A stretch of 64,000 nt of DNA, taken from the NCBI GenBank assembly GCA_964016885.1, contig OZ024750.1, forward strand, positions 36,332,001-36,396,000. The letters are read 5' to 3'. The notes beneath the pieces were generated by a model. The model saw nothing but the letters and a program-made list of their open reading frames with translations, had not been told where the DNA came from and did no database searches. Positions 1,942 through 62,451 of this stretch are shown here, piece by piece. This DNA comes from Eledone cirrhosa. Taxonomy: Eukaryota. A program made the translations under genes and the position numbers. Position 1 is the stretch's first letter. Every line of letters begins with the position of its first letter.

Positions 1942-1973
<32 letters not shown>

Positions 1974-2073: not shown

Positions 2074-2623
2074 TTAGTTTATAGATACATCTATATTAAG
2101 CAGGCAGCCCAAACCGTTGAATACTGACCTCTCCCCCCCCCCATCCCACCTAATTTCTGTATCTTTATCTAAATGTGTGTGCCAGTGTTTATGTGAGTGA
2201 ATTAATATCCATGTGCTTAGGATTTTATATCCACATATATATATGTGAGTGGTGGTGTGTGTGTGTTTGTATGTTTGTAGTTTATGTGTATGTTTATGCA
2301 TATACGCGCGTGTATGTGTGATTGTACGGATATGTGTTAGTATGAAAATATGTGTATACATTTATTTCATATTTATGTATCTATACGCATCTTATCTGTG
2401 CATTATAAACTTACAGAGACATTAACCTTGAAATTTTGTATTTGCATCCATCCTTTTTGTATGAGTATACAGGTTGTGCATACATTTTTTTAAAATATGT
2501 GTAAGGGTTATTACATGTATATACACACACCGAACGGCATTAAACCTTTTGTATTTTCATTGGTCAATTTTGTTCCCAAACGGACCTGAAAGTTTGAATT
2601 GTTGTTATTATCAATAAATATAT

Positions 2624-2777
2624 TTCATTATTTCTGAAGACGGCGTATATATGTGTTGGTATGTATATTTAATCTTGATAGTTTGTATAATTTTGTATAA
2701 TTTTGTACATAGATCTGTTGAATATGCATGCCAACTCTAACACATATATATCCTAGAAACGATCGTTAAATAATGAA
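2624..2777 (+). ncRNA. Type I hammerhead ribozyme motif with long stem II (PLE pLTR remnant)
   Basis: Stem I is TTCATTATTT/AAATAATGAA (10 bp) and the core is CTGAAGA...GAAA. Stem II includes TATATATGTGTT/AACACATATATA, stem III is the palindrome CGATCG, and the cleavage triplet is GUU. The base of stem II is mismatched. Confidence 0.75.
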
Positions 2778-3000
2778 CTTTTTTTGTTTAATATAAGGAA
2801 TTGTTTATTCATTATTTGTTTAATATTTTACATATAAATATATATATAAATATATATATATACATATAAATATATCAATATATATACAAATATATATATA
2901 AATATATCAATATATATACAAATATATATATATATACATATAAATATATATATATATAAATATATTTAAATATATAATATATAAATATATATAATATTTT

Positions 3001-3325
3001 CCTGGATGATCATCCATGGTACTTGCGAGCCACATATGGTCCCTCAAGGACTCAGGCATAGGCTACTCCATCCAATGGAAAGTTATTACTACGTCCAATC
3101 TATACTCATGCGGAAATCCATCTTGTGGACTGTGCATTGAAGAAAGGCTAAATATCCTGTGAAGATTATGCAATAACGATTGCCTAAATCGAGGAATAAA
3201 CTTTTTCCCGTTGTCCACATGGCTGGAAACATCTATTGCATAATTCCAACGCTCCAGGTTGACTAACATCAATAGTCCATAATATTCTGAATAACTTGAA
3301 TAATTTATTCCGGACACCTACATCC
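3001..3325 (+). pseudogene. Penelope-like element GIY-YIG endonuclease C-terminal remnant
   Basis: Manual translation gives SSMVLASHIWSLKDSGIGYSIQWKVITTSNLYSCGNPSCGLCIEERLNIL*RLCNNDCLNR. This aligns with STALSDLIWKLK...YSLVWYII...CKLCLNE in the 53906 ORF. Confidence 0.8.
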
Positions 3326-3940
3326 GCAGGGCTGGATTAATTGGGGGACAAAGGGGGCAATTGCCCTCGTCCCCTTGCTGTGGGGGGCGACAGCCGTTGC
3401 AATTTATTTGTGCCCTCATCTGGGTGCAAATTTAAGTTTCAAGATGGTTAGAATTTTTGAATTTAATATTTGTATGTATAACTTTTCAATTCCAATTACT
3501 TGCGCTAAGCTAACTTTGATATGTAAAATTGGAGGGTTTGCTGTGTATTGTAATTTTTTGGTGTATGAGGGGATCCCAAGATGTAAATCCAACCCTGTGC
3601 ACCCATCACACCTGATGGAGCCAATGGGGTGTTGTTGTGACATACAGCATTACGTGGGCATTTTAGACCTGATAGATCCCATCCCATCTCATCTCCAGGT
3701 TTGAATATAATTACTGATTTCTTCCAGAATATTGATATCTTATATCCTTGCATGTCGTGATGACTAAAAGAGTTAACATCAGGAAGAACACGTTGCTGTA
3801 AAGTATAATGCTTGACATGGGACCCACTAACGCTAACCAGTGAGAAAATGGCCCTAAAACACTTGTATATAAACATAATATCTGTATTCAAATTCAAATT
3901 GTGTGATGAGCAAAAATAAATGTGTGAAATTTTATAATAC

Positions 3941-4655
3941 TTAACCCTTTAGCATTTAATCTGGCCACATCTAGTCAGAATTCTCTCACCTCTTTCTATT
4001 CAAACTGGCCATAACTAGCCACTCATACCGATGTTAAGGTATAGGTCTTAAAATAAATATTTGGCATGGCAATAAAGTCTTTAGAATTGTAGGCTGTGTG
4101 CCATATATAGCAGTAAAGGTAGTTAATATTAGTTGGAATTTGAACTTTGTTGTATGCATGTGATATTCTGTATGAATACTGTATTTTGTATAATTATTTT
4201 GTCATTCTTTTGAGTTTATAATACACGCATCGAACTGCTCAATCCACAAAAGATTTTTTCCAGAGGAGAAGAGTGGCAATGATCAAACAATCACCCTATA
4301 GAGCCGACTTAAATTTGTACGATTGTTGGGTATTAAAGCAACATCTTTGAAAATTTGTTTTTGCTTCGTTACAAGAGGTGATAGACGAATCATTGCACTG
4401 GAACGGTTCCAGAAAGAGTTAAATGCTTTGCATAAACACTGTAAAAATATTATTGCATTCAATGGAGATTATGTTGTGCAGAATAAATAAATTTTAGTTT
4501 CAATATGTTGTGCATTTTCATTTAAAGGGTTATTAAGACTTTATTGTCACACCAAGTAATATCAAAATCTCATAGATTTAATATTATGTGAGATAAATCC
4601 TTTACCGTGAAAATACAATAGTATATATAGAGTAATATAAATGCTAAAGGGTTAA
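3941..4655 (+). mobile_element. piggyBac-like MITE interrupted by a mariner remnant
   Basis: Termini are TTAA-CCCTTTAGCATTT ... AAATGCTAAAGGG-TTAA. The same internal sequence occurs in other copies in the window. Confidence 0.75.
4060..4556 (+). mobile_element. Internally deleted mariner/Tc1 element
   Basis: TA-flanked imperfect TIRs TTTGGCATGGCAATAAAGTCTT / AAGACTTTATTGTCACACCAAG. Decayed transposase C-terminal motifs PYRADL (resembling PYSPDL) and NGDYV are present. Confidence 0.65.
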
Positions 4656-10237: not shown

Positions 10238-10583
10238 CATCATCATCATCATCATTTCATTTTACGTCCGCTTTTTCCCTGCTTGCAAGGGTGGGACGGG
10301 AACTGATTCTGGCTTGATTTCTACAGCTGGATGCCCTTCCTAACACCAACCTCATTTACAGTGAGTGCTGGGTGCTTTTTTGCCCTGGCACCTCCACGAC
10401 CACTTTGCAGTGGAATGATCGGGACCCCAGTCCCTATCATCTCATTTCTACAGCTGAGTAAACTGGAGCAATGTGAAATAAAGTGTCTTGCTCAAGGAAA
10501 CAACACATCACCTGGTCTGAGAATTGAACTCACAACCTTTCGATTGCAAGTCCAATGCTCTAACCACTAAGCCTTGTGCCTCC
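10238..10583 (-). mobile_element. SINE family A copy
   Basis: Reverse complement of the 9106 element. It includes CCTTGAGCAAGACACTT...CAGTTTACTCAGCTGTAGAAATGAG, which resembles the MIR CORE domain. Confidence 0.85.
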
Positions 10584-12914: not shown

Positions 12915-13260
12915 GGAGGCACATGGCTTAGTGTTTAGAGCATTGGACTTGCAATCGAAAGGTTGTGAGTTCAATTCTCAGACCGGGTGATGTGTTGTTT
13001 CCTTGAGCAAGACACTTTATTTCACATTGCTCCAGTTTACTCAGCTGTAGAAATGAGATGATAGGGACTGGGGTCCCTATCATATCCACTGCAAAGTGGT
13101 TGTGCAGGTGCCACGGCAAAAAAGTACCCTGCACTCACTGTAAATAAGGTTGGTGTTAGGAAGGGCATCCAGCTGTAGAAATCAAGCCAAAATCAGTTCC
13201 CGTCCCACCCTTGCAAGCAGGGAAAAAGCGGACGTAAAATGAAATGATGATGATGATGAT
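12915..13260 (+). mobile_element. SINE family A copy
   Basis: tRNA-like head, CORE-like body and (ATG)n tail, inserted after a (TA)n run. Confidence 0.85.
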
Positions 13261-22310: not shown

Positions 22311-22459
22311 CTCTATTCTGCAAAGCATGGCATCCGACCCTCTACTGATACTGCTGATCCACCGCCCTTGCGATGATAATAATAAATGTTTCTACTTTTT
22401 GGCACAAGGCCAGCAATTATTCCAGTATATTACTGATACTTTATTTTATCGACCCCGTG

Positions 22460-24390
22460 AATAATATAGTTAACTTATTAGATGTTATGTTAGAATTAGA
22501 TACTGGCTTATACAGACCATACCACAAGCCAGGTAAGGTTCTGTCTTACATCAACAAAGCATCTAATCACCCTAAATCTACATTTAACTTTATAGTGAGT
22601 AGCATCTCACATAGAATCTTGAGGCTGTCGGCCAACGAGGACCTCTTCGACCAAACTGCCGGCTACTACAACAAAGCACTGGCCGAATCAGGGTATAGCA
22701 GCAAGATTTTGTACATCCAGGATGTCGGCTCTACTAGGCCCCCCCTCCTGCAGGACCAGTCGCACCAATAACCACCACGGCAGTGGACTTGTTAACGGGA
22801 AATATGCAGGTCGAATTAGTAATGTGGCTAGCTTTGGCCAGCATCATAACAACAAGGGTGGTAGGCTAGGGCGACCCCTACATTCGTACCAACTTAGTTC
22901 GGGCAATAGAATTAACAGCAGCCTACTAGAAAAATTCCCCGCGTACAGGCTTAATAATGGTGATGGTATCTTGCCAACACCTACCAGCAAGCATAGGGTA
23001 ACCCAGAGCGGCCCAGCAGGGGGTAGGTTAACACACGGGGCTAATATGAACAGAGCGCAAAATAAGCAGCAGCCCAACCCTCTTGGTAGAAACACCCACC
23101 AGGGCTTAAACGACCGCACCAACCCAACGGTAACAGGGAAACACCGGCGTAATGTCATATGGTTCCTTCCCCCCTACTCTAAGAGTATAGTGTCTAACAT
23201 ATCCAGAATCTTCTTCGATGCCTTAGAGAGGAACTTCCCACCTAATCACAGATACCGAAAAATCCTCAATAAGAATAACATCAAGATATCTTATTCTACT
23301 ACACCGAATTTAGCAGACCTCATAGCACTGAGCAACCACAGTAAGCTCACTAGAATAAAACCAGCCCATAATGCCAACATTGGTGAATATGCTTACCTGG
23401 TTAACCTTAACAATTCTGTGGCCCAGAATAGTAGTGGTAATAGTAACGAAAGTAATTATAGTATTAGCAGTAACGTCTACAATAGCAACACCATAGAGAC
23501 TAACCTCAGCGCCAGTAGGGAGGCTGACGACCAGGTTAGATACCATAGCAGCGATAACAATGGCTGTAGAAGATGCTATAACACGAGCAATAGAAATAGC
23601 ACCGTGCCGTATGACTATAACTACAATAATGCTAACCACAATAATGGCAACAATGGTGATGGTGAAAATGATAGTAATGGGATTAGTAGCAGACCTCACC
23701 ATTCTAGAAATAGCAGCAAAAAACACTGCAATTGCCGATACCCTAACAACTGTCCACTCCAAGGCTACTGTTTGATTAGAAACGTAATCTATAAATGCAC
23801 AGTTACGAGTTTTAATAGCACAAGGTCATACATAGGTGTCACTTCTGAGGAGTTCAAGACTAGATTTAGATCACATCTCCACTCCTTTAAGAATAGGAAA
23901 CTAAGATTCTCTACCTCCCTCGCTAATTATATTACTCAATTAACCGACTCTAACATTAGCTACACCACGCAGTGGGAAATTGTTAACCAAGCAACCCCAT
24001 ATAATTTCAGGAAAAATTGCCAGCTCTGCTTAATGGAGTTATAGTATATAGTACAAGCACCCTAGGAACACATTAATAGTCGGGCCGAAATGCTCATCAA
24101 TTGCAGCCATCGACTGAAGCAATCCTTCTACGGATGGACCCCTGCGCCTGAATAATATCATATCCCTACAGCTCTCTTCATCGGACCCCAGCTTGACCCA
24201 CCTGCAATAGGTTTACCATTGGGCAGTGTCTAATGACACTACCAACCATCCATTGGTTTCCCACCGGGATGCTACGTAGCACCTACTGAGTTAGACTCAC
24301 CCTGCTAAATTCTTCCTTTTTGATGAGTTAGGTTAAAATAAACTTACGAACCTACTGCGTGAACCTGAATAACATCATAGATTAAATAAA
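22460..24390 (+). mobile_element. 5'-truncated Penelope-like retroelement (RT C-terminus, Asn/Ser-rich linker, GIY-YIG endonuclease)
   Basis: LLDVMLEL...YHKP...YINKASNHP (RT thumb); RNVIWFLPPYS...KISYSTTPNL; CNCRYPNNCPLQGYC..RNVIYKC...YIGVTSEEFKTRF...CQLCLME. There is a frameshift at poly-C about 22740 and premature stops after 24041. Confidence 0.92.
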
Positions 24391-25074: not shown

Positions 25075-26139
25075 AACATATATGTAGTATATATACACAT
25101 GATATGTTTGGTATAAGGGTAGCTAACGAAACATGAGAGGAAGTAGAATGAAGGCAGAGAAACAGATGAAGTGGAAGACTAAGAATGAAGTATAAGTAAC
25201 CAACACACAGACACAGAGATTCACAGCTAGAAGAGCAGAAAATAAACAATGGAAGGTAAGGAGTGATGGAGAGAGAAGGCAAACAAACTGGGTAGGTGGT
25301 GATGTAATTAGAAACACTGTAGCTGTGTGTTCATACCATTAGAAGCAGAGGATACCAGTTGGAAAATATGTTATTGTTTAATAACTAGGCAGTGACCTTT
25401 GTACTGTAATGTTGTAAACTCCAGTTGGGGAATTCTAGCCTTTTTTCCCCATTACTCAATGTTTTCTTTCCAATGAAGTTCAGGTTTTGATTTTGACTGA
25501 ATAAAAAGGACTAAACAGCAACACTGAAATATCTAAAATTTTATTTTAATATCTGTCACCATAGAATACTGTGATGTAAGGAATTGTAAATAATGTTCAG
25601 TATTTTTTAACCCTCTCACCTCTTTCTGTTCAAACCGGCTGTAACTTGCTACTTATACTGATGTTAAGGTATTGTTCTCAAAATAAATAATATTAAAAAT
25701 CTTGTACATTCAATATTATGTGAGATAAATCCTTTACAGTGAAAATACAATAGTATGTATAAAGTAATGAAAATGCTAATGGGTTAAATTTATTTTGACA
25801 GTGCATATATAGTAAGAGAGGGGTAGGGCTGAATTAAATATAAAGTCAGTTCATTATAGAACTCTGTGAGAGAAAGGGTTTGGTTGAGTGTAGGATATAG
25901 TCCTACTTTTTATCATCGTCAGTGGAGAAAGGTCATTTCTCTGTTGTTGCCTTTGGCTATAAAAGCTACATATACAACTTGGTAACAATGGTGTGGAAAC
26001 ATGAGGCTTAAAGAGTGGTAGATTGATATATTGTAGGAACGCATTTCATGAAAGGCAGATGACTATGGGATTAAAAAATCAAGAAACATTCAAAAGAATT
26101 AAGTAAAATCCCCAAAGTTAAAGAATGGCTACACAGGTG

Positions 26140-27442
26140 GCTCAGAGGTTGCTCACATGTTGCTTACAAGTTGTTCACAGGTTCCTCACATGTTGCTCAG
26201 AAGTTGTTCACAGGTTGCTTACAAGTTGTTCACAGGTTCCTCACATGTTGCTCACAAGTTGTTCACAGGTTCCTCACATGTTGCTCACAAGTTGTTCACA
26301 GGTTCGTCACAGGTTGCTTACAAGTTGTTCACAGGTTCCCCACATGTTGCTTACAAGTTGTTCACAGGTTCCTCACATGTTGCTCACAAGTTGTTCACAG
26401 GTTCCTCACATATTGCTCACAAGTTGTTCACAGGTTCCTCACATGTTGCTTACAAGTTGTTCACAGGTTCCTCACATGTTGCTCACAAGTTGTTCACAGG
26501 TTCCTCACGTGTTGCTTGCAAGTTGTTCACAGGTTCCTCACATGTTGCTCACAAGTTGTTCACAGGTTCCTCACAAGTTGTTCACAGGTTCCTCACATGT
26601 TGCTCACAAGTTGTTCACAGGTTCCTCACATGTTGCTTACAAGTTGTTCACAGATTCCTCACATGTTGCTTACAAGTTGTTCACAGGTTCCTCACATGTT
26701 GCTTACAAGTTGTTCACAGGTTGCTCACATGTTGCTCACAAGTTGTTCACAGGTTGCTCACAAGTTGTTCACAGGTTGCTCACATGTTGCTTACAAGTTG
26801 TTCACAGGTTGCTCACAAGTTGTTCACAGGTTGCTCACATGTTTCTCACAAGTTGTTCACAGGTTGCTCACATGTTGCTCACAAGTTGTTCACAGGTTCC
26901 TCACAAGTTGTTCACAGGTTCCTCACATGTTGCTTACAAGTTGTTTACAGGTTCCTCACATGTTGCTTACAAGTTGTTTACAGGTTCCTCACATGTTGCT
27001 CACAAGTTGTTCACAGGTTCCTCACATGTTCCTTACAAGTTGTTCACAGGTTCCTCACATGTTGCTTAGAAGTTGTTCACAGGTTGCTCACAAGTTGTTC
27101 ACAGGTTGCTCACATGTTGCTTACAAGTTGTTCACAGGTTGCTCACATGTTTCTCACAAGTTGTTCACAGGTTGCTCACATGTTGCTCACAAGTTGTTCA
27201 CAGATTGCTCACAAGTTGTTCACAGGTTGCTCACATGTTGCTTACAAGTTGTTCACAGGTTGCTCACATGTTGCTTACAAGCTGTTTACAGGTTCCTCAC
27301 ATGTTGCTCACAAGTTGTTCACAGGTTCCTCAAATGTTGCTTACAAGTTCATTGCAGATTGCTCTCAGGCTACTCACAAGTTGCTCACGTGTTGCTCTCA
27401 GGTTGCTCACAGGCTGCTATTAGGTTGCATACATGTTGCTCA
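26140..27442. repeat. 11-bp satellite with 33-bp higher-order unit
   Basis: GTTGCTCACAA-GTTGTTCACAG-GTTCCTCACAT repeated, degenerate at both edges. Confidence 0.95.
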
Positions 27443-28459
27443 TTGCATCCCACCTGAGGATACTGCTGATTCTATTAAACACCTCACCTAATTAGCTCTT
27501 TCCCCCACTACTCATAGCATTCTCGACTCCCTGCCAATGAAATTTGGAATTCACTTTGATTAAATTGAAAAATTAAGAAAAAAATCTCTCAAACATTCAA
27601 CTCTGTAAAGGGAGTTTTGTGTACTAATTACATTTCAGTTGATAACTCTTAGCCCTGCCAACTGAATATGTTTTGCTAAGGAGGTTTAATAACATTGAAA
27701 CACATCTGTTGCTTTCACAAGTTAGTTATAAATACCAAATCCACTCTAATGTATATTGTTTATATTGTTAAATACTTTCAATCAACTGATCCTATTGAAG
27801 TTAACTCTCAACCCTTTACCATATTCACTATGGGTGGTGGATTGGCAGTATCGGTAGAGGGTCGGGGGTCATGCTTTGCAGCAAAGAGTTACGTCCCTTT
27901 ATGGTCTGAGTTCAAATCCCGTCGAGGTTAACTTTGCCTTTCATCCTTACGGGGTCGATAAAATAAAGTACCAGTAATGCACTGGATAATTGCTGGCCTT
28001 GTGCCAAATGTAGAAACAATTATTCTATATATACTATTGTATTTTCACAGAAAAGGCTGTATCCTCCATAATTATCTCACATAATATCGAATCTATGAGA
28101 TTTTGATATTATTTATTTTGAAAACAATACCTTAACGTCGATATAAACAGTGAGTTACGACAGGTTTGAACAGAAATAGGTGAGAGAATTCTAGCCAGAT
28201 ATGGCCAGTTTAAATGCTAAAGGGTTCAGATGTTAAACACCCTCTAGTATTTTGTCTCTTAACTAATTCTTTTCTTGTGACACTTGTGGCCATATTTGAT
28301 TACTACTCTTAGTATTTGACACTTAATTCCGTTTGTTTTGACACTATCTCCTTAAACCAAATAGTAAAAGGCATTAGTTGTTTTTAACATGACCATACAA
28401 AATATAAATTATTAAGATAATAGCATGACATTTTCATGATTCCAAACTGAATTTTCTAA

Positions 28460-41011: not shown

Positions 41012-42350
41012 GTATTGATACTTTAACATATATCCCGTCCCACCACCCCCACCCCATCCACACCGCCCCCTTCTATGTAAAGTTATGTTGGTGCCACACC
41101 ATCCAGGCCGAAACAAATGAGATCGTGTAGGTGTCACGACAAAAAAACACACAGTCCACGCTGTAATGTGGCCGTGTAGGCAACACGGTAAAAACCTCCC
41201 AGACTCACACTGTAAATGTGGTTGGTGTTAGGAAGGGCATCCAACTGTAGAAAACCTGCCAGACAGTCCTATGCGAGCAAGACAATCACTCTTGCCTCAA
41301 GTGGGAATACCCCCGTCCAAACCCATGCAAGCGTGGAACACGGACGTTAAACGTTGATGATGATGATGATGATGATATACACACATACACACACACACAT
41401 ATATACATAAACACATACATAAATACACATACATACATACATACATATATATATTAACATTAGTTTTTGTAAATTTGGTATTTTTTATGATTGCAATATG
41501 CAAGGCGATCAATTGATATATTCTCTATTGATATTGATTCCATTTTTGCAAATGTAGGTAGTCTAAGTTTTGGTATAATTGCTACAGACAACAAAACCGA
41601 AATTTCAGCTATCACAGGAATGGCTTTTATGTATTTCCTGGAAAATATCATCATTAATAATAAATGAAGAAACAAAAATATATATACACTAGATTTTTTT
41701 CTCATATATAGAAAATGAACTTTTGTGAAAAATATCATTATATAGAACAGCAGCTGCAGTGGAAACATTTTCGAATGACTCATATTTACTATGTTCTTCT
41801 AAATGTATTTTGTTCAGGCAAGCTGAAAAAGCCTACAATTTGTGTTATTTTTATGCAATCTGATTAACTATTTGCAATAGCTGCTATCAAGAAATGTTTT
41901 CTAATTTCCTCGTAAATAAAATACATTCCTTCCATGAATATCAGATAATTGCTTCATAATTGAGTTTCTTGGCTCCTCCTTGTTCTTTTTTTTTTTATAA
42001 TATAATTGGCAGACTAAAAGGAATCAAAGATTTCAGTGAATCGATCCAACATTTCTTTTAGACAGATACAAACAAATTTTCATCAATGTTTTTAAAACTA
42101 TTATTTTCATAAGCAATGGCATTTTAACAATGAAAGGTATTCTTGAGATTTCAAAATAAATAAATAACTTAATTAAAATGATATATATATATCATAATAT
42201 ATATATATATATAATATATGGAAAGTTATATTTAAAATTGTTGGGTTACAACTAGTAAATATTTATAACTGATATAAAAGCACTCGACAAATATTTGGAG
42301 TATATTTACAATATTAAATAAATGGAAAACTATATTTATAAAACCATATT

Positions 42351-42416: not shown

Positions 42417-43718
42417 CAATATAAACAGTTTTATAGATAAATAGATTCGACATACCGTTATAACACCGACTTCATTTGAAGAGGTTTACGCTGGCAGTGA
42501 AAAAATTTTACACAGAGAGAAAGAAAGAGAGAAAACAGAAAGAAAGATAGAAAACGAAGAAAAGGAAGAAAAAGAAGAGAAAGAGGAAATGCATGGAACA
42601 AAATAGAGAGATGGAAAGATAGATAAAGCGAAGAACTTCATGTAAAGAAACAGAAAGAGATATATATATATATAGAGAGAGAGGAAATAGAGATAGATAC
42701 ATATATATATAGAAAATTAGGTAGTGGGAGGTCATTTTGAGTAAATGTATCAATGATACGTTTATTTATTTATTTATTTATTTAGCTCAAGTATTAATGT
42801 AAGGGAGACATATAGAGAGAGAAAAAAAATATAGAGAGAGGAAAAAAATAGCGAGAGAAAAAAATTAAAAAATATCCAGATATATTCGAGGCGTAAAAAC
42901 CCTATGTTTTAATGTATTAGTATTTATAAAACTTACACTATATTGTAAATATCAGTATTCCTGAATGAGACAAGTATCCAAAATGTGTGAAAATTAATTA
43001 TCTTATGTTTAGTCTTAAAAAAAAATTCATATGTTTATGTGACAGCTACAAACATCCATGCGAATCCAACTGATTCACTCTGCAAACTCTAAGTTCACGG
43101 AAAACATTCTCAATGTGGTATAAAAATTTGAGCATACAAATATGTGTATTATTATTCCTGTCATTACTCTACAAGATTATCTATCAAGCAGAAATAGAGA
43201 GCAGATTTCAATATACTAATAAAAATATATATCATAAACAAAACTAAAAATAAAAAGATAACAATAATAATAATAAGTAAAAATATAGAATATAGAATAG
43301 AAAACTAAAAAAATAGAAAACTAAAAAAATATTACGAAAGAATATTACATAATAAAAATATTATATATTAAACATACTACGTATTAAAAAATATTACGTA
43401 TTAAAAATTTACATATTAAAGATATTAAAAATAAAAATAAAATAAAAAATAAAAAATATTATAGAATACTACAATAATAAAAATAAAAATAAAAATAAAT
43501 AAAAAATAAATAAAAATAAAAATAAACCACAAAGATCAACCCTTCAAAGTTAATTGACAATATATTGCCAAGTTCATTACAAGACAAAGCCAAAAATTAT
43601 CTATCAAATCACATCTAGCAAAGATCATTTCAAAAAGATTATGATGTCCAATTAGGTCTACATATGTTCTTATATTTAATATAGAAGTTTATCTAGTGTA
43701 AGGTTTATTCAAAAAATT

Positions 43719-44078
43719 TGTAATGTTAATACTGACTCTAATTCTTTTAACTACGTCGGTTCCACATCGACGGAATTTAAACTTCGCTATAATAACCACA
43801 AGAATTCTTTCACAGATCCAAGTAAAAAATCTTCAACGGCACTATCAGGCGTACTCTGGCAACTTAAGCTAGATAACGTTAGATATTCGACGGCTTGGAA
43901 TATAGTCTCAAGAGGGATTCCTTTTAATTCAGCCTCTGAGACATGTGACCTCTGCGCAGAGGAGATATTCTTTATACTAAAATCTAAAAATTCCCTTAAC
44001 CTACGGACAAATTTATTCAGTTGTTGCAAACATAGATTAAACTCAACGTTTAAATATAAATTTAAATTTAAAATGTAG
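43719..44078 (+). pseudogene. PLE GIY-YIG endonuclease C-terminal fragment (no start codon, absent from the ORF track)
   Basis: CNVNTDSNSFNYVGSTSTEFKLRYNNHKNSF...STALSGVLWQLK...CDLCAEE...LNLRTNLFSCCKHR...M*, an uninterrupted frame. Confidence 0.9.
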
Positions 44079-47610: not shown

Positions 47611-48215
47611 AGTTAAATACAGTGTTTACCTCTGATCAAATAATCCGAATACTGGAGGTTTTACATTGGTATTTATAGATACAACAGAGAATCAAAACAA
47701 TAACATCAATAATAAAAGATAATAATAAAGAAGTAAAGAAGTTAGAATGAAGATGATAAAGATGTAAAAATTAAGTAAAAAAATAATAAGTACAGAATAC
47801 GATTGCTGATAATAGTGGTGGTGATTAAAGTTACGGTGGTGGGTAAGTATATGTGTAAAGATTTGGTGAGGGTAGAGATAATACTATCATGAAAGGAAAC
47901 ATTAAATACATACATATGTAGTGGTCAAATCTCAGAGGGTTAGAGTAGAAAATAAAACATAGTAATAAATGACAGTTAAAAGATAATAAATTAAAAATTA
48001 AGTGAGAGAAGAGATACAGGACAGGAGACAGGGATGGGGGTGGCGATATGATAAGATGATAAGATGATACATGTGATAAATGTCTGGCAGGCTGATTGTC
48101 AGGCTGAGAGTGAAAGAAAGGTTATGAGATTTATGATGTTGATTTAGTGACCAGTTGGGGTCAGTTGACAGCTATTTAACAGTGGGGTGGTATGTGTATA
48201 TATGTATATATGTGT

Positions 48216-50766
48216 ATATAGAGGGAGAGTGGGAATTTCTGAAAGCAAACCTGCTGTTGGCGACAGACGAGGTCTGTGGCTGGAGCAGGCCTGTAGGCAG
48301 GAGGAGAGTAACATGGTGGTGGAACAGTAAGGTGGAGGGGTCAATTAAGGCCAAAAAGCAGGCTTGGAAAGTATGGCGGGATGGGGGAAGTAGAGAGGAC
48401 TATCAAGTGGCCAGGAGGGAAGCTAGGAGACAAGTGTACTTAGCAAGAAGGGAAGCTGAGGAAAGAAAGTTCAAGCATGTTCTACAACGCGATGACCAAA
48501 AACGTGAGGTGTTCAGGATTGCTAGGCAATGCGTCAAGGAAAACCGTGATATTGTCGGGGAGAAGTGTGTACTAAACGACGATGGCACACTTGCCATCAC
48601 CGACGCTGATAAGAAGGTAGCTTGGAAGTGTCACTATGAAAGGCTTCTAAATGAGGAGAATAATTGGGAGAAAGGCAGTCTCCCCCATATCGACCCAATA
48701 GAGGGACCAGCAGTGTTAGTCGAGGGGAGTATAATAAGTAAGGCAATCAAGGATATGAAGACTGGTAAGGCGGCTGGGCCTTCGGAAATAGTTGCTGAGA
48801 TGCTGAAGGCATCTGGCACGGTGGGACACACCATGGTCACCCGCATAGTTAACCAAGTCGTACAAAACGGGGTTGTTCCGAAGGACTGGCATAGCAGCAT
48901 CATCGTTAACTGTTATAAGGGTAAAGGAGACGCCCTAGATAGGAGTAACTATAGAGGCATTAAATTAATCGACCAGGTCATGAAGGTCACGGAAAGAGTA
49001 ATAGCGCAACTAATCAGAGAGAGAATTGACCTAGATGAAATGCAGTTCGGGTTTGTGTCAGGCAAAAGTACCACAGACGCTCTTTTCATAGTACGACAAC
49101 TACAAGAGAAGTACCTAGCTAAAGGTAAACCCCTCTACTTAGCTTTTGTCGACTTGGAGAAAGCCTTCGACAGAGTCCCCCGCTCCATTATCTGGTGGGC
49201 TCTTAGAAAACTAGGCGTTGACGAATGGCTTGTGAGGGCTATACAAGCCATGTATAAAGAAACAGTCAGCAAGGTTAGAATTAACAACGAATATAGTGAA
49301 GAGTTTAGCGTAAAAGTCGGCGTCCATCAGGGCTCTGTTCTCAGTCCACTACTATTTATTATTGCCCTTCAGGCCATAACAGAGGAGTTCAAGACAGGCT
49401 GCCCATGGGAACTCCTATACGCAGACGACCTGACACTCATAGCGGAATCAATGGCCGAGCTAGAGAAGAAATTCCAAACATGGAAGCACGGCCTAGAGTC
49501 AAAAGGACTTAAAATTAACCTGGCTAAGACCAAAGTACTAGTTTGTAGGAAAGAAAACAAGGCGGCGGTCCCTTCTGGGAAATGGTCGTGCTCGGTGTGT
49601 AGGAAAGGCGTAGGTAGAAACTCCATTTTATGTCCTAAATGCAAAGTATGGGTGCATAAAAGATGTAGTGGGATCACAGGTAGGCTAACTAAGAACATAG
49701 ATTTTACATGTGGCCGGTGCTCTGGTGCAATAAGTAGCAGCAAGTGCCCACAAACTACTAGCTCTTTCAATTGCGCAGAGGGTTCTATAGAAATAGTGGA
49801 CAGCTTCCGTTACCTGGGCGATAAAATCAGCAGTGGGGGAGGGTGCTCTGAAAGTACTGTAGCTAGAGTCAGAACTGGTTGGAAAAAGTTCAGAGAGCTT
49901 ATACCACTATTAGCTGCTAAAGGGTTCTCACTAAAAATGAAAGGCAGGTTGTACGATGCCTGCATACGAACAGCAATGCTGCATGGCAGTGAGACCTGGG
50001 CATTGTGTGCAGAGGATATATGCAGACTAGAGAGGAACGAAGCTTGCATGCTCCGCTGGATGTGTAACAGTAATATACGTGAACGGCAAAGCATAAACGA
50101 ACTAAGGAATAAATTAGAGATAAGAGGGATCAGATGTTGTTTACTCGAGAGAAGGCTACGTTGGTATGGACACGTGATGCGCATGAAAGTCGATAGCTGT
50201 ATAACAAAGTGCAGGGCAATAAAGATAGACGGTAGTCACGGAATAGGCAGACCTAGAAAAACCTGGGACGAGCTGATAAACTCCGACATCACACACTTAC
50301 ACCTCTCCAAGACAATGTCACTGGACCGAGACCTTTGGCGGTACTCAGTAACAGAGAAGACCCGCCTTACCTAAATATATAGTAAAACCTACTCCAGCCA
50401 GTAGGCATCTCTAACAAATACACCCCGTCCCACCACCCCCACCCGATCCACACCACCCCGTTCTATGTAAAGTTATGTTGGTGCCGCGCCATCGAGGCCG
50501 AAACAAATGAGATCGTGTAGGTGTCACGACAAAAAAACACACAGTCCACGCTGTAATGTGGCCGTGTAGGCAACACGGTAAAAACCTCCCAGACCCACAC
50601 TGTAAATGTGGTTGGTGTTAGGAAGGGCATCCAACTGTAGAAAACCTGCCAGACAGTCCTATGCGAGCAAGACAATCACTCTTGCCTCAAGTGGGACTAC
50701 CCCCGTCCAAACCCATGCAAGCGTGGAACACGGACGTTAAACGTTGATGATGATGATGATGATGAT
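48216..50766 (+). mobile_element. Young 5'-truncated RTE LINE (RT and PHD-like finger intact)
   Basis: ORF 48155-50374 is nearly identical to the 59076 ORF from IEGEWEF onward. It has the YADD motif, a 3' UTR and an (ATG)n tail. Confidence 0.96.
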
Positions 50767-50774: not shown

Positions 50775-50937
50775 ATAAAAACAAATAACGAAACGAAATT
50801 AAATTTCGTTTCGTTTGTAACTCACTTTTGTATGACTGACGCTTAAACAATTAAGTTAAAATTGTTTAAGCTTCATTCATATAAAAGTGAGTTACAAACG
50901 AAACGAAATTTAATTTCGTTTCGTTATTTGTTTTTAT
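50775..50937. repeat. Nested palindrome upstream of a hammerhead
   Basis: Inverted arms of about 75 bp, each containing its own hairpin AACGAAACGAAAT..ATTTCGTTTCGTT. Confidence 0.9.
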
Positions 50938-51063
50938 CGTCTCCGTTGAACCGGTACGTACTCACGCTCTATGCAAATTAGTCTGCCCACTACTAATTTT
51001 CATAGAAAAAGCATATAACGATATGTGCTTTTACGATTCTCTAGAAAGGCCGGAAGATAGGTA

Positions 51064-51108
51064 AATATTGCTGATGAGATGTAACAACATCGAAACTAGT
51101 CCAATATT
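51064..51108 (+). ncRNA. Canonical minimal type I hammerhead ribozyme
   Basis: AATATTG-CTGATGA-GATGT-AACA-ACATC-GAAA-CTAG-TC-CAATATT. Stems I and II are perfect, stem III is palindromic and the site is GUC. Confidence 0.92.
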
Positions 51109-51360
51109 CCTTGTCTGGCTTTCTGGAGAATAGAGGAAAGGTGTTTCCTCAAAAACCAGTATGACTCTAAAAACCGGTTTGTCTGTGTGTTTACATACAG
51201 AATAGCTGGACACTCACAGTAAAGTGACCAGTGAAAAACTCGGTACATCTACATATGTACACGTGTGTGTATTCATATGCATACTAGTATTTCAGTATAC
51301 ATATGTGGATGTACATTTTTAACTTAATTGTTTATACATATATATATATATATATAGATA

Positions 51361-53547
51361 TAAAATAAAGTTAAATAAAAGTCAAATGATTAAAATTTAG
51401 CTTCGTTTATTACTGCTATATATATTTCAGTGACAGCCATCTTTGGCTGTGACCTCTTCAGGCAGTTTGAATTAGTATGGTATAGACAAGTACATATGTT
51501 GTTTAGGTGTATGATATTGTCAATACTCTGATATGCCCAGTTCCTTGTTGGGTTGTTAATTCACTGGGGAACTGGAGTCATATGAATTCAAACAAACGAA
51601 TTTCAGTGTCACAGGTCCCCTTCTCCTCTCATTGGTCAGTTATTTGAACATTCCTCATTCTAAGTGTTGTTATTGTTGGAGTTAGCTTAAAAATTGATAA
51701 AATGGTAGAAGGGACAAGGTGTTAAAGGAACAAAATAACAAAATAACAAAAAAAGTGTCAAACTTCCCATTGTTCAGTTCTGAGAGCATTCCTCAGTCAG
51801 AAGTCTATAGAATTCTTTCTGGGGTGAGGCTCCCTGTAGTGTTTTTGCCTGCTATTGTTCAGTACATTTGACCTCCACCATTATTTTGGTACTGTTGTTG
51901 TTGTAGTGGTCAGCTTATATCTTGCTGCTGCTGCTAACAATTTAGAAGTATCCAGTTTGTGTTTTTTCTTCATCCCTCCCGCCACCATCGTAGTGGTGGT
52001 GGTGGGGGGGGGGGGGGTTCTTTCATGTATATGAAGAAATATATGGCAATAAATGAAGAAAATAGAAAATAAATAAATAATATAATAAAGTAATTAATAT
52101 AATTTGTGTAATTTGAAAATAAATAAATAAATAGAGAATAAAGAATAAAGAGTAAATGAGAGATTGGTGAAAAAGTAATGATAATGTATATGGAGAGGTG
52201 AGAAATAATGTAGGATAAAGTGTGTGTGTGTGTGCTATAACCAATCTCAAGGTCAGAATATGTTGGATAGATTGGTATGAGACAAGATGTTAAGATGAGA
52301 TATTCAATGTGTTTGTGTTATAATCTATCTCAACTTAAAATAAATATAAGATGATACAGTGAAGAGGGCAGAAAACAGAAAACAAATTAATAAAGAGAAA
52401 TCAAGATTTAAGATTGGAACTTGAAAGTCAGAAATCTGGTAAATTAAAAGTGTTTGTGTTATAGATGTTGGCCAAATTATTATGGCTGTGTCCGATTCTA
52501 TCTCTAGGCTATCATGGTGTCTGCTCTGCCTGGGTTGTTCCCTGTGGCTTGAGGGGAGTTCACAACCTAGGGTGTTGTTATTGCCCATATAGCTTGAGGG
52601 AGGTCTGGCCGAGAGGTGTTTTCATGTTCTGTAGAAGTCCCTATAGCTTGAGGGGAGTTCACATCTTCTTGTGTTGCTACTGTCCATATATCTTGAGAAA
52701 GGTGCCGGCTCTAAGGTGTCTGCATGTCCCGAAGAAGTCGGTTCTGAGGTTTATCAGGCCGCTTCCACCTCTTAATATCTCGAGGGTCTCGTTCAGGCAT
52801 AGTTTGCATATGCAAGATCCCCCTTTATCGGGTGGTACTTTCCTGATTATGTACCAGACCAGAGAGTATGGGGTCCTGTCCAGCTTAAGCTTCCAGATCA
52901 GGTCGGAGAGAGCTGTGCTTTTCCTTTTGGACTCCTTCTTGAATGAATGGCGATGGTTGTACCAGCGGTCCTTAAAGCTCGTTGATGTGGGTCCTATGTA
53001 GAGGTGTTCGGAGTTGGGGGTTTTAACCCGACAACCATACACTAGGTTCTTCTTGAGACATTCATTACCAAGGGGGCATGATTTGGGGTTTCTGCAGTTG
53101 CAGAGGGTGGTCGGCCTCTGCGTGCCTAGATTAGGGTTCTCATTATGTGTTACATGTTGGTCTTCCCCCATGCTCGGTGGGGGGTCCTTGGGTCTGTTTG
53201 TGTTTCTTGGGTGGGCTCTGGGTCCCCTCTTCCCTCATTTCACATGGTTCTGCTGAGTGTTTGTATTGCCATCTTCTGGTTGTGTGTGTTTTTTAAGCCT
53301 ACTTCTGTTGATGCTAGCTATGTGTTGGGCCAAATTTCTCGTGGTGGAATACGAAATCTTCACAGTGTGTCTGTTGAAGATCCTGTGGTATCTGTGGTCC
53401 CTCGGGAAGCATTTGTCAAGTGCTCCAAAGAATAATCGGGCCAAGCTTTTCTTTAGGGCCGCTGAGTAGGGTGGGTTGTACCACGTGATTTGTCGGTGTC
53501 TTCTCCTATATGTGTGGGTTGGGGGCTTCGTGATTTGTTGGAGATTT
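51361..53547 (-). mobile_element. Penelope-like element 3' portion (left arm of 4.4-kb palindrome)
   Basis: ORFs 53235-53567 and 52677-53171 mirror those of the right arm. Confidence 0.93.
51412..51466 (-). ncRNA. Minimal type I hammerhead ribozyme
   Basis: Reverse complement of 55616-55670. Confidence 0.85.
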
Positions 53548-55721
53548 GAAGCCCCCAACCCACACATATAGGAGAAGACACAGACAAATCACGTGGTACA
53601 ACCCACCCTACTCAGCGGCCCTAAAGAAAAGCTTGGCCCGATTATTCTTTGGAGCACTTGACAAATGCTTCCCGAGGGACCACAGATACCACAGGATCTT
53701 CAACAGACACACTGTGAAGCTTTCGTATTCCACCACGAGAAATTTGGCCCAACACATAGCTAGCATCAACAGAAGTAGGCTTAAAAAACACACACAACCA
53801 GAAGATGGCAATACAAACACTCAGCAGAACCATGTGAAATGAGGGAAGAGGGGACCCAGAGCCCACCCAAGAAACACAAACAGACCCAAGGACCCCCCAC
53901 CGAGCATGGGGGAAGACCAACATGTAACACATAATGAGAACCCTAATCTAGGCACGCAGAGGCCGACCACCCTCTGCAACTGCAGAAACCCCAAATCATG
54001 CCCCCTTGGTAATGAATGTCTCAAGAAGAACCTAGTGTATGGTTGTCGGGTTAAAACCCCCAACTCCGAACACCTCTACATAGGACCCACATCAACGAGC
54101 TTTAAGGACCGCTGGTACAACCATCGCCATTCATTCAAGAAGGAGTCCAAAAGGAAAAGCACAGCTCTCTCCGACCTGATCTGGAAGCTTAAGCTGGACA
54201 GGACCCCATACTCTCTGGTCTGGTACATAATCAGGAAAGTACCACCCGATAAAGGGGGATCTTGCATATGCAAACTATGCCTGAACGAGACCCTCGAGAT
54301 ATTAAGAGGTGGAAGCGGCCTGATAAACCTCAGAACCGACTTCTTCGGGACATGCAGACACCTTAGAGCCGGCACCTTTCTCAAGATATATGGACAGTAG
54401 CAACACAAGAAGATGTGAACTCCCCTCAAGCTATAGGGACTTCTACAGAACATGAAAACACCTCTCGGCCAGACCTCCCTCAAGCTATATGGGCAATAAC
54501 AACACCCTAGGTTGTGAACTCCCCTCAAGCCACAGGGAACAACCCAGGCAGAGCAGACACCATGATAGCCTAGAGATAGAATCGGACACAGCCATAATAA
54601 TTTGGCCAACATCTATAACACAAACACTTTTAATTTACCAGATTTCTGACTTTCAAGTTCCAATCTTAAATCTTGATTTCTCTTTATTAATTTGTTTTCT
54701 GTTTTCTGCCCTCTTCACTGTATCATCTTATATTTATTTTAAGTTGAGATAGATTATAACACAAACACATTGAATATCTCATCTTAACATCTTGTCTCAT
54801 ACCAATCTATCCAACATATTCTGACCTTGAGATTGGTTATAGCACACACACACACACTTTATCCTACATTATTTCTCACCTCTCCATATACATTATCATT
54901 ACTTTTTCACCAATCTCTCATTTACTCTTTATTCTTTATTCTCTATTTATTTATTTATTTTCAAATTGCACAAATTATATTAATTACTTTATTATATTAT
55001 TTATTTATTTTCTATTTTCTTCATTTATTGCCATATATTTCTTCATATACATGAAAGAACCCCCCCCCCCCCCCCACCACCACCACCACTACGATGGTGG
55101 CGGGAGGGATGAAGAAAAAACACAAACTTGATACTTCTAAATTGTTAGCAGCAGCAGCAAGATATAAGCTGACCACTACAACAACAACAGTACCAAAATA
55201 ATGGTGGAGGTCAAATGTACTGAACAATATCAGGCAAAAACACTACAGGGAGCCTCACCCCAGAAAGAATTCTGTAGACTTCTGACTGAGGAATGCTCTC
55301 AGAACTGAACAATGGGAAGTTTGACACTTTTTTTGTTATTTTGTTATTTTGTTCCTTTAACACCTTGTCCCTTCTACCATTTTATCAATTTTTAAGCTAA
55401 CTCCAACAATAACAACACTTAGAATGAGGAATGTTCAAATAACTGACCAATGAGAGGAGAAGGGGACCTGTGCCACTGAAATTCGTTTGTTTGAATTCAT
55501 ATGACTCCAGTTCCCCAGTGAATTAACAACCCAACAAGGAACTGGGCATATCAGAGTATTGACAATATCATACACCTAAACAACATATGTACTTGTCTAT
55601 ACCATACTAATTCAAACTGCCTGAAGAGGTCACAGCCAAAGATGGCTGTCACTGAAATATATATAGCAGTAATAAACGAAGCTAAATTTTAATCATTTGA
55701 CTTTTATTTAACTTTATTTTA
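53548..55721 (+). mobile_element. Penelope-like element 3' portion (right arm): linker, GIY-YIG endonuclease, long 3' UTR, pLTR
   Basis: RQITWYNPPYS...K(L/I)SYSTTRNL; CNCRNPKSCPLGNEC..NLVYGC...LYIGPTSTSFKDRWYNH...CKLCLNE...CRH. Confidence 0.93.
55616..55670 (+). ncRNA. Minimal type I hammerhead ribozyme
   Basis: ACTGC-CTGAAGA-GGTcACAGCCA-AAGA-TGGCTGTcACT-GAAA-TATATA-TA-GCAGT, followed immediately by AATAAA. Confidence 0.85.
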
Positions 55722-55859
55722 CACTACTCCGGAGTAACCAAACCAACCTGCGCACTTCGTCGAGTGCTCCAGCCTGCATACTGAGGTGTTGGTATACAAC
55801 CAACATAAACTCAAAATCTATATATAGATATATATAGATATATATATAGATATATATAC

Positions 55860-55929: not shown

Positions 55930-56730
55930 CATCATCATCATCATCATCAACGTTTAACGTCCGTGTTCCACGCTTGCATGGGTTTGGACGGGGGTATTCC
56001 CACTTGAGGCAAGAGTGATTGTCTTGCTCGCATAGGACTGTCTGGCAGGTTTTCTACAGTTGGATGCCCTTCCTAACACCAACCACATTTACAGTGTGGG
56101 TCTGGGAGGTTTTACCGTGTTGCCTACACGGCCACATTACAGCGTGGACTGTGTGTTTTTTTGTCGTGACACCTACACGATCTCATTTGTTTCGGCCTCG
56201 ATGGCGCGGCACCAACATAACTTTACATAGAACGGGGTGGTGTGGATGGGGTGGGGGTGGTGGTGGTGGGACGGGGTGTATTTTGTTAGAGATGCCTACT
56301 GGCTGGAGTAGGTTTTACTATATATTTAGGTAAGGCGGGTCTTCTCTGTTACTGAGTACCGCCAAAGGTCTCGGTCCAGTGACATTGTCTTGGAGAGGTG
56401 TAAGTGTGTGATGTCGGAGTTTATCAGCTCGTCCCAGTTTTTTCTAGGTCTGCCTATTCCGTGACTACCGTCTATCTTTATTGCCCTGCACTTTGTTATA
56501 CAGCTATCGACTTTCATGCGCATCACGTGTCCATACCAACGTAGTCTTCTCTCGAGTAAACAACATCTGATCCCTCTTATCTCTAATTTTTTCCTTAGTT
56601 CGTTTATGCTTTGCTGTTCACGTATATTACTGTTACACATCCAGCGGAGCATGCAAGCTTCGTTCCTCTCTAGTCTGCGTATATCCTCTGCACACAATGC
56701 CCAGGTCTCACTGCCATGCAGCATTGCTGT
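55928..56730 (-). mobile_element. Young RTE LINE 3' fragment
   Basis: [10 protein letters not shown]...TEKTRLT* plus the 3' UTR, nearly identical to the other two young copies. Confidence 0.95.
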
Positions 56731-58330
<1,600 letters not shown>

Positions 58331-58664: not shown

Positions 58665-61600
58665 TAGCTAGCTACCCCCCCACCCCCACGCACCACCATT
58701 GCTACTACGTGGACCAATCATAAAACAGAGCCCCCACGCATCACCAGTATTATTACGCGGACCAATCAGAAGCCAGAGGCCTATACTATCGCTTGCCTGG
58801 TTGCCTTTCGATATATGATGGATGGATGGACTGCGGAATCCTGGAGAGTGGAGGAGAGAGAGAGAAAAATCTGGACGCTCAGCGACAATGCCAAAGATAA
58901 AGACAAATTCACCTCTTGGACGAGAATGCGAGCACTCCTCATTGTTTCGACCGCGGACGGCTAACATAACCCCATCGCCCCCCACCGCCCCCAACCCCCA
59001 AACGCAATCCAAAACTTCAGAGTTGGTACCATAAATGTAGGCACCCTAAAGGGTCGCGCTAACGAGGTTGTAGAAATGCTTGAACGTAAGGAGGTCGATG
59101 TTTGTTGTATTCAAGAGACCAGGTGGAGGGGTGGGTCTGCTAGGTTCATTGAGGGTAAAAAACGATGTTATAAGCTTTTCTGGGTGGGAAACGACGATGG
59201 GCTGGGTGGAGTAGGAATCATGGTAGCAGAAAAGTGGGCAGATAAGATAATAGACGTAAATAGAGTGAACGACAGAATAATTAAAATACGACTTGTCCTC
59301 AATAGAACTACGGTGACAGTAATATCTGCGTACGCACCCCAATCCGGACTGCCCGGCACTATAAAAGACAGATTCTATGAGACACTGATGCTAACTACCT
59401 CCCAAATATCCGACAGTGACTATATAATTATCGCAGGCGACCTAAATGGTCACGTTCGACAACATTGTGACGGCTACGACGAAATCCATGGAGGCTATGG
59501 GTTTGGTACTAGAAATGAGGAAGGCTCCAGAATCCTGGAATTCTGTGATGCAAATAACCTAACTATCTGTAACACTAACTTCAAAAAACGTGACAATCAC
59601 CTGATCACCTATAGATCCGGGGAACACACAAGCCAGGTAGATTATATCCTTACCAGAAGATGTGACAGAGTGTCTGTTGTAAACACTAAATCCCTCCCCC
59701 ATGAAGAATGCACCTCCCAACATAGACTGATAATTAGCGACCTCATAGTCAGGACGAGACGTACTCGACAGCAGAAGAGGACTATCCTCAGGAGAAAAAT
59801 ATGGAAGCTAAAGGACCCCACAGCCAGGAATAAATTTCAAAGCATATTACTTGATGCTTTCGACAGTAAGGAAGAACATTTAGAGTCGGACAATATAGAG
59901 GGAGAGTGGGAATTTCTGAAAGCAAACCTGCTGTTGGCGACAGACGAAGTCTGTGGCTGGAGCAGGCCTGTAGGCAGGAGGAGAGTAACATGGTGGTGGA
60001 ACAGTAAGGTGGAGGGGTCAATTAAGGCCAAAAAGCAGGCTTGGAAAGTATGGCGGGATGGGGGAAGTAGAGAGGACTATCAAGTGGCCAGGAGGGAAGC
60101 TAGGAGACAAGTGTACTTAGCAAGAAGGGAAGCTGAGGAAAGAAAGTTCAAGCATGTTCTACAACGCGATGACCAAAAACGTGAGGTGTTCAGGATTGCT
60201 AGGCAATGCGTCAAGGAAAACCGTGATATTGTCGGGGAGAAGTGTGTACTAAACGACGATGGCACACTTGCCATCACCGACGCTGATAAGAAGGTAGCTT
60301 GGAAGTGTCACTATGAAAGGCTACTAAATGAGGAGAATAAATGGGAGAAAGACAGTCTCCCCCATATCGACCCAATAGAGGGACCAGCAGTGTTAGTCGA
60401 GGGGAGTATAATAAGTAAGGCAATCAAGGATATGAAGACGGGTAAGGCGGCTGGGCCTTCGGAAATAGTTGCTGAGATGCTGAAGGCATCTGGCACGGTG
60501 GGACACACCATGGTCACCCGCATAGTTAACCAAGTCGTACAGAATGGGGTTGTTCCGAAGGACTGGCATAGCAGCATCATCGTTAACTGTTATAAGGGTA
60601 AAGGAGACGCCCTAGATAGGAGTAACTATAGAGGCATTAAATTAATCGACCAGGTCATGAAGGTCACGGAAAAAGTAATAGCGCAACTAATCAGAGAGAG
60701 AATTGACCTAGATGAAATGCAGTTCGGGTTTGTGTCAGGCAAAAGTACCACAGACGCTCTTTTCATAGTACGACAACTACAGGAGAAGTACCTAGCTAAA
60801 GGTAAACCCCTCTACTTAGCTTTTGTCGACTTGGAGAAAGCCTTCGACAGAGTCCCCCGCTCCATTATCTGGTGGGCTCTTAGAAAACTAGGCGTTGACG
60901 AATGGATTGTGAGGGCTATACAAGCCATGTATAAAGAAACAGTCAGCAAGGTTAGAATTAACAACGAATATAGTGAAGAGTTTAGCGTAAAAGTTGGCGT
61001 CCATCAGGGCTCTGTTCTCAGCCCACTACTATTTATTATTGCCCTTCAGGCTATAACAGAGGAGTTCAAGACAGGCTGCCCATGGGAACTCCTATACGCA
61101 GACGACCTGACACTCATAGCGGAATCAATGGCCGAGCTAGAGAAGAAATTCCAAACATGGAAGCACGGCCTAGAGTCAAAAGGACTTAAAATTAACCTGG
61201 CTAAGACCAAAGTACTAGTTTGTAGGAAAGAAAACAAGGCGGCGGTCCCTTCTGGGAAATGGTCGTGCTCGGTGTGTAGGAAAGGCGTAGGTAGAAACTC
61301 CATTTTATGTCCTAAACGCAAAGTATGGGTGCATAAAAGGTGTAGTGGGATCACAGGTAAGCTAACTAAGAACATAGATTTTACATGTGGCCGGTGCTCT
61401 GGTGCAATAAGTAGCAGCAAGTGCCCACAAAATACTAGCTCTTTCAATTGCGCAGAGGGTTCTATAGAAATAGTGGACAGCTTCCGTTACCTGGGCGATA
61501 AAATCAGCAGTGGGGGAGGGTGCTCTGAAAGTACTGTAGCTAGAGTCAGAACTGGTTGGAAAAAGTTCAGAGAGCTTATACCACTATTAGCTGCTAAAGG

Positions 61601-62451
61601 GTTCTCACTAAAAATGAAAGGCAGGTTGTACGATGCCTGCATACGAACAGCAATGCTGCATGGCAGTGAGACCTGGGCATTGTGTGCAGAGGATATACGC
61701 AGACTAGAGAGGAACGAAGCTTGCATGCTCCGCTGGATGTGTAACAGTAATATACGTGAAAGGCAAAGCATAAACGAACTAAGGAAAAAATTAGAGATAA
61801 GAGGGATCAGATGTTGTTTACTCGAGAGAAGGCTACGTTGGTATGGACACGTGATGCACATGAAAGTCGATAGTTGTATAACAAAGTGCAGGGCAATAAA
61901 GATAGACGGTAGTCACGGAATAGGCAGACCTAGAAAAACCTGGGACGAGCTGATAAACTCCGACATCACACACTTACACCTCTCCAAGACAATGTCACTG
62001 GACCGAGACCTTTGGCGGTACTCAGTAACAGAGAAGACCCGCCTTACCTAAATATATAGTAAAACCTACTCCAGCCAGTAGGCATCTCTAACAAAATACA
62101 CCCCGTCCCACCACCACCACCCCCACCCCATCCACACCACCCCGTTCTATGTAAAGTTATGTTGGTGCCGCGCGATCGAGGCCGAAACAAATGAGATCGT
62201 GTAGGTGTCACGACAAAAAAACACACAGTCCACGCTGTAATGTGGCCGTGTAGGCAACACGGTAAAAACCTCCCAGACCCACACTGTAAATGTGGTTGGT
62301 GTTAGGAAGGGCATCCAACTGTAGAAAACCTGCCAGACAGTCCTATGCGAGCAAGACAATCACTCTTGCCTCAAGTGGGACTACCCCCGTCCAAACCCAT
62401 GCAAGCGTGGAACACGGATGTTAAACGTTGATGATGATGATGATGATGATG

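Follow-up and report, generated by a model that had tools for sequence, protein, structure and literature searches.

EN+ Penelope-like elements (PLEs) typically leave an inverted, 5'-truncated copy and a one-sided tail at their insertions (PMC8557442, PMC3846280), and how these inverted copies and tails form is named as an unresolved question in PMC8557442. The Hydra clade of EN+ PLEs is diagnosed by RWK and DKT motifs, CxCX5C, CxxC/CxH, and the lack of CCHH, and its elements are described as being, in general, below 3 kb in length (Craig et al. 2021, PMC8557442). The minimal hammerheads of PLEs have a CUGANGA/GAAA/UH core and a short palindromic helix III, according to the available text of PMC4209133.

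The insertion reaction has been studied in vitro with the Poseidon element of Anolis (PMC11167929, available text). Its protein, predicted to act as a dimer, cleaves both strands of the target, extends both, and begins synthesis at two sites with the tail between them, and no difference in start site was seen from one strand to the other. Insertion did not require hammerhead cleavage in this system. Here, we describe a head-to-head insertion found in a 64,000-nt stretch of Eledone cirrhosa DNA (the window) and compare it with sister insertions in the same genome.

RESULTS

One head-to-head insertion with asymmetric tips

Aligned with each other, positions 51361-53529 and 53548-55721 are reverse complements of 2,169 and 2,174 nt that differ by only 7 substitutions and one 5-nt indel, the latter in a poly-C tract (99.7% identity). 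The palindrome with two near-identical 2.2-kb arms reported in the initial annotation is therefore real, and its two arms resemble each other more than either resembles any other copy found. The 18-nt spacer between them (53530-53547) belongs to the element itself: it lies directly upstream of the same sequence in other copies, and it is in frame with the endonuclease (QQITKPP...), as had been read from the minus strand. Microhomology at the junction amounts to 1 nt, at 53548.

The insertion had been taken to end at 55721, but it runs on to 55818, with the right arm alone extending into a 97-nt element-derived tail and the left arm ending before the tail sequence. The first 94 nt of this tail occur at full length in 15 of 28 other loci, with one more cut by the end of its locus, and the last 3 nt agree with the tandem continuation. 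Because a 12- to 14-bp direct repeat flanks the unit, containing a G that sets it apart from pure (TA)n, and because both insertion ends abut (TA)n, 51361-55818 is one insertion event with asymmetric tips. The direct repeat and the one-sided tail thus support the single event proposed at the outset. The features of the insertion are listed below in window positions; ruler values are coordinates on a natural full-length copy of the family.

51349-51360, plus strand: likely target-site duplication, left copy (12 bp, or 14 with the shared TA; marked by the distinguishing G)
51361-55818, unstranded: whole head-to-head insertion of a PLE placed by motif in the Hydra clade (its ends match the two 3' ends of the family, with (TA)n and the direct repeat on either side)
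51361-53547, minus strand: longer 5'-truncated arm including the spacer, without tail (ruler 1873-4061)
51412-51466, minus strand: mirror hammerhead motif (from arm alignment and folds), followed by AATAAA at 51406-51411
52677-53234, minus strand: mirror endonuclease remnant
53530-53547, minus strand: unpaired 18-nt spacer, native coding sequence (occurs upstream of the same sequence in other copies)
53548-55721, plus strand: shorter 5'-truncated arm (ruler 1892-4061)
53843-54400, plus strand: remnant of the C-terminal GIY-YIG endonuclease, which includes the CxCX5C linker, CxxC, and CxH (PF01541, E = 0.003, below cutoff)
55497-55504, mirrored at 51578-51585, unstranded: self-complementary octamer, pile-up site of family 5' ends and likely 5' edge of the pseudo-LTR
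55616-55670, plus strand: minimal type I hammerhead motif (from sequence, folds, and core conservation), followed by AATAAA at 55671-55676
55722-55818, plus strand: 97-nt tail, right arm only (matches in other loci and the tandem continuation)
55819-55830, plus strand: likely target-site duplication, right copy (direct repeat)

Several other repeats share the window. Four young RTE-type LINE copies (97 to 99%) lie at 48143-50744, 55950-56736, 58965-62428, and 41071-41354, and one of them is open over 1,028 aa. A pair of these copies encloses the PLE palindrome as an outer inverted repeat; their inverted 3' ends (49964-50744 and 55950-56736, 97%) were considered as part of the insertion and rejected as separate copies of this family, which has four copies in the window. 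Directly left of the insertion, at 50775-51334, is a second, non-coding family with a unit of about 466 nt that is tandem elsewhere. It contains an HH9-like hammerhead at 51053-51124 (Rfam E = 2e-7, below gathering) and is itself found head to head, as a 163-bp palindrome at 50775-50937, with 63 candidates in the genome; it resembles a non-LTR retrozyme mobilized by the machinery of PLEs. Two tRNA-like heads without acceptor stems, probably SINEs, occur at 10517-10573 (minus strand) and 12924-12981 (plus strand), and a 1.4-kb minisatellite at 26075-27491 is open in three frames.

Coding remnants, hammerhead motifs, and probable clade

Both arms lack the RT, and both carry an in-frame stop (53840-53842 in the right arm) just before the endonuclease remnant. 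A sister copy, L076, retains an 893-aa open frame with RT (YRDD) and the same C-terminal GIY-YIG endonuclease as the window. PF01541 finds no match on the full L076 protein and only a weak one on the window arm. Aligned with its relatives, the L076 protein has RWK, DKT, CxCX5C, and, around the catalytic E/N, CxxC and CxH; it lacks CCHH, and a single cysteine, not conserved in the relatives, stands between GIY and YIG. An Argonauta protein (43% identity) is among the best homologues, none of which is a named reference protein. The element monomer measures 4,155 nt, partial tandems form pseudo-LTRs at five loci (L068, L070, L077, L085, and L109), and the flanks of one-tailed insertions show a preference for (TA)n.

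With an RT and C-terminal GIY-YIG endonuclease, pseudo-LTR tandems, and an inverted 5'-truncated copy with a tail at one end, the element is an EN+ PLE, in line with its first identification. Its motifs place it as a putative Hydra-clade Penelope-like retrotransposon. The Neptune and Penelope/Poseidon clades were ruled out, since CCHH and the two cysteines between GIY and YIG are lacking. Remnants of two other, diverged PLEs with similar endonuclease motifs lie at 22358-24044 and 43680-44078 in the window, the former with asparagine-rich inserts.

Each tip carries a motif with a CUGAAGA/GAAA/UA core, a 5-bp stem I, a long stem II closed by G-U, and a palindromic UAUAUA forming helix III and loop 3. 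RNAfold recovers stems I and II, and the core positions are 98 to 100% conserved across 223 family segments. The outward-facing hammerhead motif with AATAAA that had been noted at each arm end can be read from the sequence. The usual G10.1-C11.1 pair of minimal type I hammerheads is replaced by G-U, and U precedes GAAA in the tip motif and in 83% of family segments, a figure that counts the U alone. An Rfam search of both tip motifs gave no call at gathering or at E ≤ 5. Rfam miRNA matches were set aside as hairpin-shape matches below the gathering score. We read the tips as minimal type I hammerhead motifs of the PLE kind, a type that would cleave itself as a dimer or with protein.

Sister insertions are abundant

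Exact pattern counts, which are complete genome-wide, returned 6,708 matches to a hammerhead 21-mer in the whole 3.0-Gb genome. To count similar structures had been suggested in the initial annotation: among the first 100 of these matches in contig order, a hand count gave 24 outward-facing (minus-then-plus) pairs within 5 kb, or, by rough extrapolation, about 1,600 pairs genome-wide. The same 100 matches supplied a positional sample of 71 loci, not selected by tail, in which 42 loci hold 45 head-to-head junctions. A larger set of 100 junctions was chosen in part with a tail-containing query. Two loci (L186 and L228) had no segment passing the filter, and two others (L195 and L199), apparently copies of a single locus, enter the counts as two junctions, neither of them scorable for tails.

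Most head-to-head insertions are small (192 to 1,521 nt in 42 of the 45 junctions of the positional sample). A near-twin of the window palindrome, L225, spans 4.1 kb with 2-kb arms and a 95-nt loop, and L076:1590-9278 is a 7.7-kb insertion with a 400-nt loop and open frames of 893 aa on one arm and 772 aa on the other. Since many sister loci, these two included, share its architecture, the window palindrome is ordinary in kind; it is also real and extreme in its proportions, and none of the 100 junctions examined goes further in combining long arms with a tight loop.

The 5' ends of family copies pile up at the self-complementary octamer, which lies about 125 nt upstream of the core of the hammerhead; in the positional sample, ruler 3830-3849 holds 39 segment starts. 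Three junctions (L121, L169, and L204) join exactly on the octamer, and insertions of this type recur as solo palindromes of about 540 nt.

Most junctions carry one tail, usually on the shorter arm

In the positional sample, exactly one arm carries a tail at 35 of 37 scorable junctions (8 of the 45 being unscorable), an excess with a binomial p of 5e-9 against independent tail choice. Across all 100 junctions, 74 are scorable: 67 have one tail, 6 have two, and 1 has none. The tail sits on the more truncated arm at 34 of 45 junctions with loops longer than 30 nt (p = 8e-4) and at 8 of 10 with loops of 9 to 30 nt, that of the window among them. In the positional sample, the arm 5' ends also tend to match: they lie no more than 30 nt apart at 22 of 45 junctions (mean under permutation, 11.2; 0 of 10,000 permutations as high). 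With the pile-up site removed, the figure is 10 of 22 (mean, 1.6; 0 of 20,000). Microhomology of at least 2 nt is present at 25 of 42 junctions without inserted bases, versus 15% expected, and inserted bases occur at 18 of 60 junctions.

Proposed priming from both target ends

We lean, by a little, toward the following reading: the locus is a single dead insertion in (TA)n, of the standard form of its family, in which both cut target ends likely primed reverse transcription of the same RNA and the two cDNAs were end-joined. An RT-endonuclease, probably a dimer, would have cut both target strands 12 to 14 bp apart. One target end would have primed at the outer start site, so that the tail was included, and the other at an inner site 97 nt upstream, without the tail. 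Both cDNAs would have stopped at roughly the 5' end of one truncated RNA; joining their ends would have cost one of them 18 nt, and the second strands would have been supplied by repair. The template RNA may have come from a defective copy, as the in-frame stop in both arms suggests, mobilized in trans and absent from the assembly. We infer the pairing of start sites with target ends, because PMC11167929 saw the strands not to differ in start site.

The pattern of tails bears on this choice. In a simple fold-back, the copy is the shorter arm and cannot hold 3' sequence absent from its template; most insertions, that of the window included, therefore need either a second end copying the RNA or trimming. 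Two zero-loop junctions with 2-nt overlaps (L179 and L207) are too tight for a hairpin and so count for two-ended priming. Also in its favor are the matched arm 5' ends, the excess of microhomology, the reaction seen in vitro (PMC11167929), and the 10 mutations common to the two arms. Against a strict one-tail rule stand the six two-tailed junctions and the one tail-less junction among the 74, and against the reading as a whole counts that a search for its supposed source copy did not recover one. The whole mechanism is read from finished insertions; a fold-back or self-primed intermediate with endonuclease trimming of one tail would give the same sequences, and snap-back also predicts matched arm 5' ends.

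A possible fold-back center with a second step for the tail

The initial annotation attributed the palindrome to fold-back or template-switch synthesis. Pure fold-back is weakened by the position of the tail on the shorter arm and by the 1-nt microhomology at the junction. A two-step version survives better, and we regard it as possible though rather unlikely: fold-back, or the antisense self-priming proposed for head-to-head PLE copies, would have made the center, and the one-sided tail would have arisen by endonuclease trimming, or by a short second priming that copied only the tail, followed by annealing. The excess of short loops fits this account, and a single template accounts for the mutations shared by the arms. 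Palindromes at inverted junctions have been read as self-priming (PMC3846280), and the tail has been attributed to endonuclease-mediated resolution (PMC8557442), each according to the available text. However, the extra step is needed in about three-quarters of cases, since the tail sits on the copy arm, and pairing is slight where self-priming would rely on it: 1 nt at the window junction, 2 nt at the zero-loop junctions, and 0 to 5 nt at loops of up to 3.7 kb.

Mutations shared by the arms

The window arms share 10 mutations absent from all other sampled loci and have 5 arm-specific private changes, whereas other junctions with at least 100 nt of overlap have 43 shared and 175 arm-specific changes (Fisher p = 2e-4). 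As an addition to either of the above models, the insertion could be older than the identity of its arms suggests, with arm-to-arm gene conversion in the long, tight hairpin having copied mutations across. Besides the ratio of shared to arm-specific changes, two observations favor conversion: each arm has as many private changes as its siblings in the subfamily (10 to 13 per 2 kb), and a 26-mer holding two private changes was found, in an exact genome-wide search, only in the two window arms, so that the source copy was not recovered.

We nevertheless consider conversion improbable. The ratio is independent of loop length (12:50 for loops of up to 200 nt and 31:125 for longer ones), the arms of nine old short-loop palindromes are about as diverged as their neighbors, the near-twin L225 has a ratio of 2:8, and three long-loop insertions (L114, L095, and L096) show the same excess. 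For L114, no source copy was found among the best 40 matches, a search that can miss closer copies: the nearest relative of L069 was 96% identical there, and a larger sample yielded a copy 1.35% away over the overlap. L069 had itself appeared to be a second case, with 11 shared mutations, which fell to 1 in the larger sample. Early counts favored conversion as a rule of the family, and the larger sample, with no link to loop length, ruled against it. A defective source copy missing from the assembly is the simpler reading of the shared mutations.

Unlikely readings: functional RNA hairpin and assembly artifact

The window locus is ordinary debris of an abundant family, and no function is indicated for the palindrome. 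That it serves as a source of functional hairpin RNA (small RNAs or an editing substrate), silencing the family or masking the ribozyme, is very unlikely. An RNA transcribed through the palindrome would pair into a 2.2-kb duplex covering the hammerhead, yet no promoter is known upstream of the hairpin, hundreds of sister palindromes exist, and insertion in vitro did not depend on hammerhead cleavage (PMC11167929). A scan of 60 of 165 candidate open reading frames for host protein domains or exons found none, only two RT fragments. The element's presumed promoters would sit at the tips and face outward. Because family 5' ends pile up at the octamer, each tip may give short outward transcripts that are unable to pair with the other arm. 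The earlier suggestions of an ADAR or Dicer substrate and of ribozyme masking require a transcript entering from outside the element.

An assembly or chimeric-read artifact (a fold-back read or consensus homogenization) might be suggested by the 99.7% identity of the arms, which resemble each other more than they do any further copy, but it is scarcely credible. Each arm runs to a natural 3' end of the family, the flanks differ, and there are a one-sided tail and a direct repeat, whereas a false fold-back would repeat the flank in mirror image without regard to where the element ends. Sister insertions built in this way number in the dozens. Assembled contigs of read runs X1 and X2 (one sample), X4, and X5, which may come from other individuals or species, were placed on 52660-53620 and showed the family at high depth. 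No piece crossed the junction in these contigs, which drop rare sequence, and at six positions that distinguish the arms from the family, only the family allele is present.

DISCUSSION

This family is young and numerous, and its tail, at 97 nt, is long and can be scored, so that counts can test two-ended priming against fold-back. More tentatively, the two subunits of a dimeric RT-endonuclease may divide the start sites of one RNA between them, each subunit working at its own target end and the tailed one lagging. If this is true, the one-tail rule, the shorter-arm bias, and the matched 5' ends would be the footprint of the dimer, and the inverted copies and tails of PLEs would be explained in one step. 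We found no statement of two-ended priming or of a counted one-tail rule in the PLE literature, where subscription papers and supplements may hold one. The outward-facing hammerhead pairs, roughly extrapolated to about 1,600, matter for assembly and for any double-stranded RNA study in this genome.

In LINE-1 twin priming, both target ends prime and the cDNA ends are joined by microhomology, which yields an inversion without duplication. Priming from both ends and joining by microhomology are alike in the reading favored here, but both arms copy the same 3' end, and a LINE-1-type twin-priming inversion was rejected on this ground. The Poseidon element of Anolis (PMC11167929) shares with the present family an AT-rich target and, on the reading favored here, two start sites bounding the tail and both strands cut and extended; Poseidon belongs to a different clade, however, and the available text does not treat inverted insertions.

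With the Hydra clade as described in PMC8557442, the family shares RWK/DKT, CxCX5C, CxxC/CxH, the lack of CCHH, a hammerhead, and a (TA)n target. It differs in its monomer of about 4.15 kb versus less than 3 kb, size being a descriptive trait rather than a motif, and in its long low-complexity ORF inserts, 1.3-kb 3' UTR, and thousands of copies. The tip motif and the minimal type I hammerhead of PLEs likewise have the core and a short palindromic helix III in common (PMC4209133, available text) and differ in the G10.1-C11.1 pair, which is G-U here.

Published EN+ PLE insertions (PMC8557442, Fig. 2 legend; Adineta vaga, PMC3846280) also have a head-to-head inverted copy at the 5' end, a tail at one end, partial tandems, and a target duplication. 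Their tails measure 30 to 40 nt, compared with 97 nt here, and the window palindrome stands apart from their inverted copies in that both arms are 2.2 kb long and the loop is only 18 nt. The head-to-head architecture is thus already published and standard for PLEs; what the counts here add is the one-tail rule and the bias of the tail toward the shorter arm.
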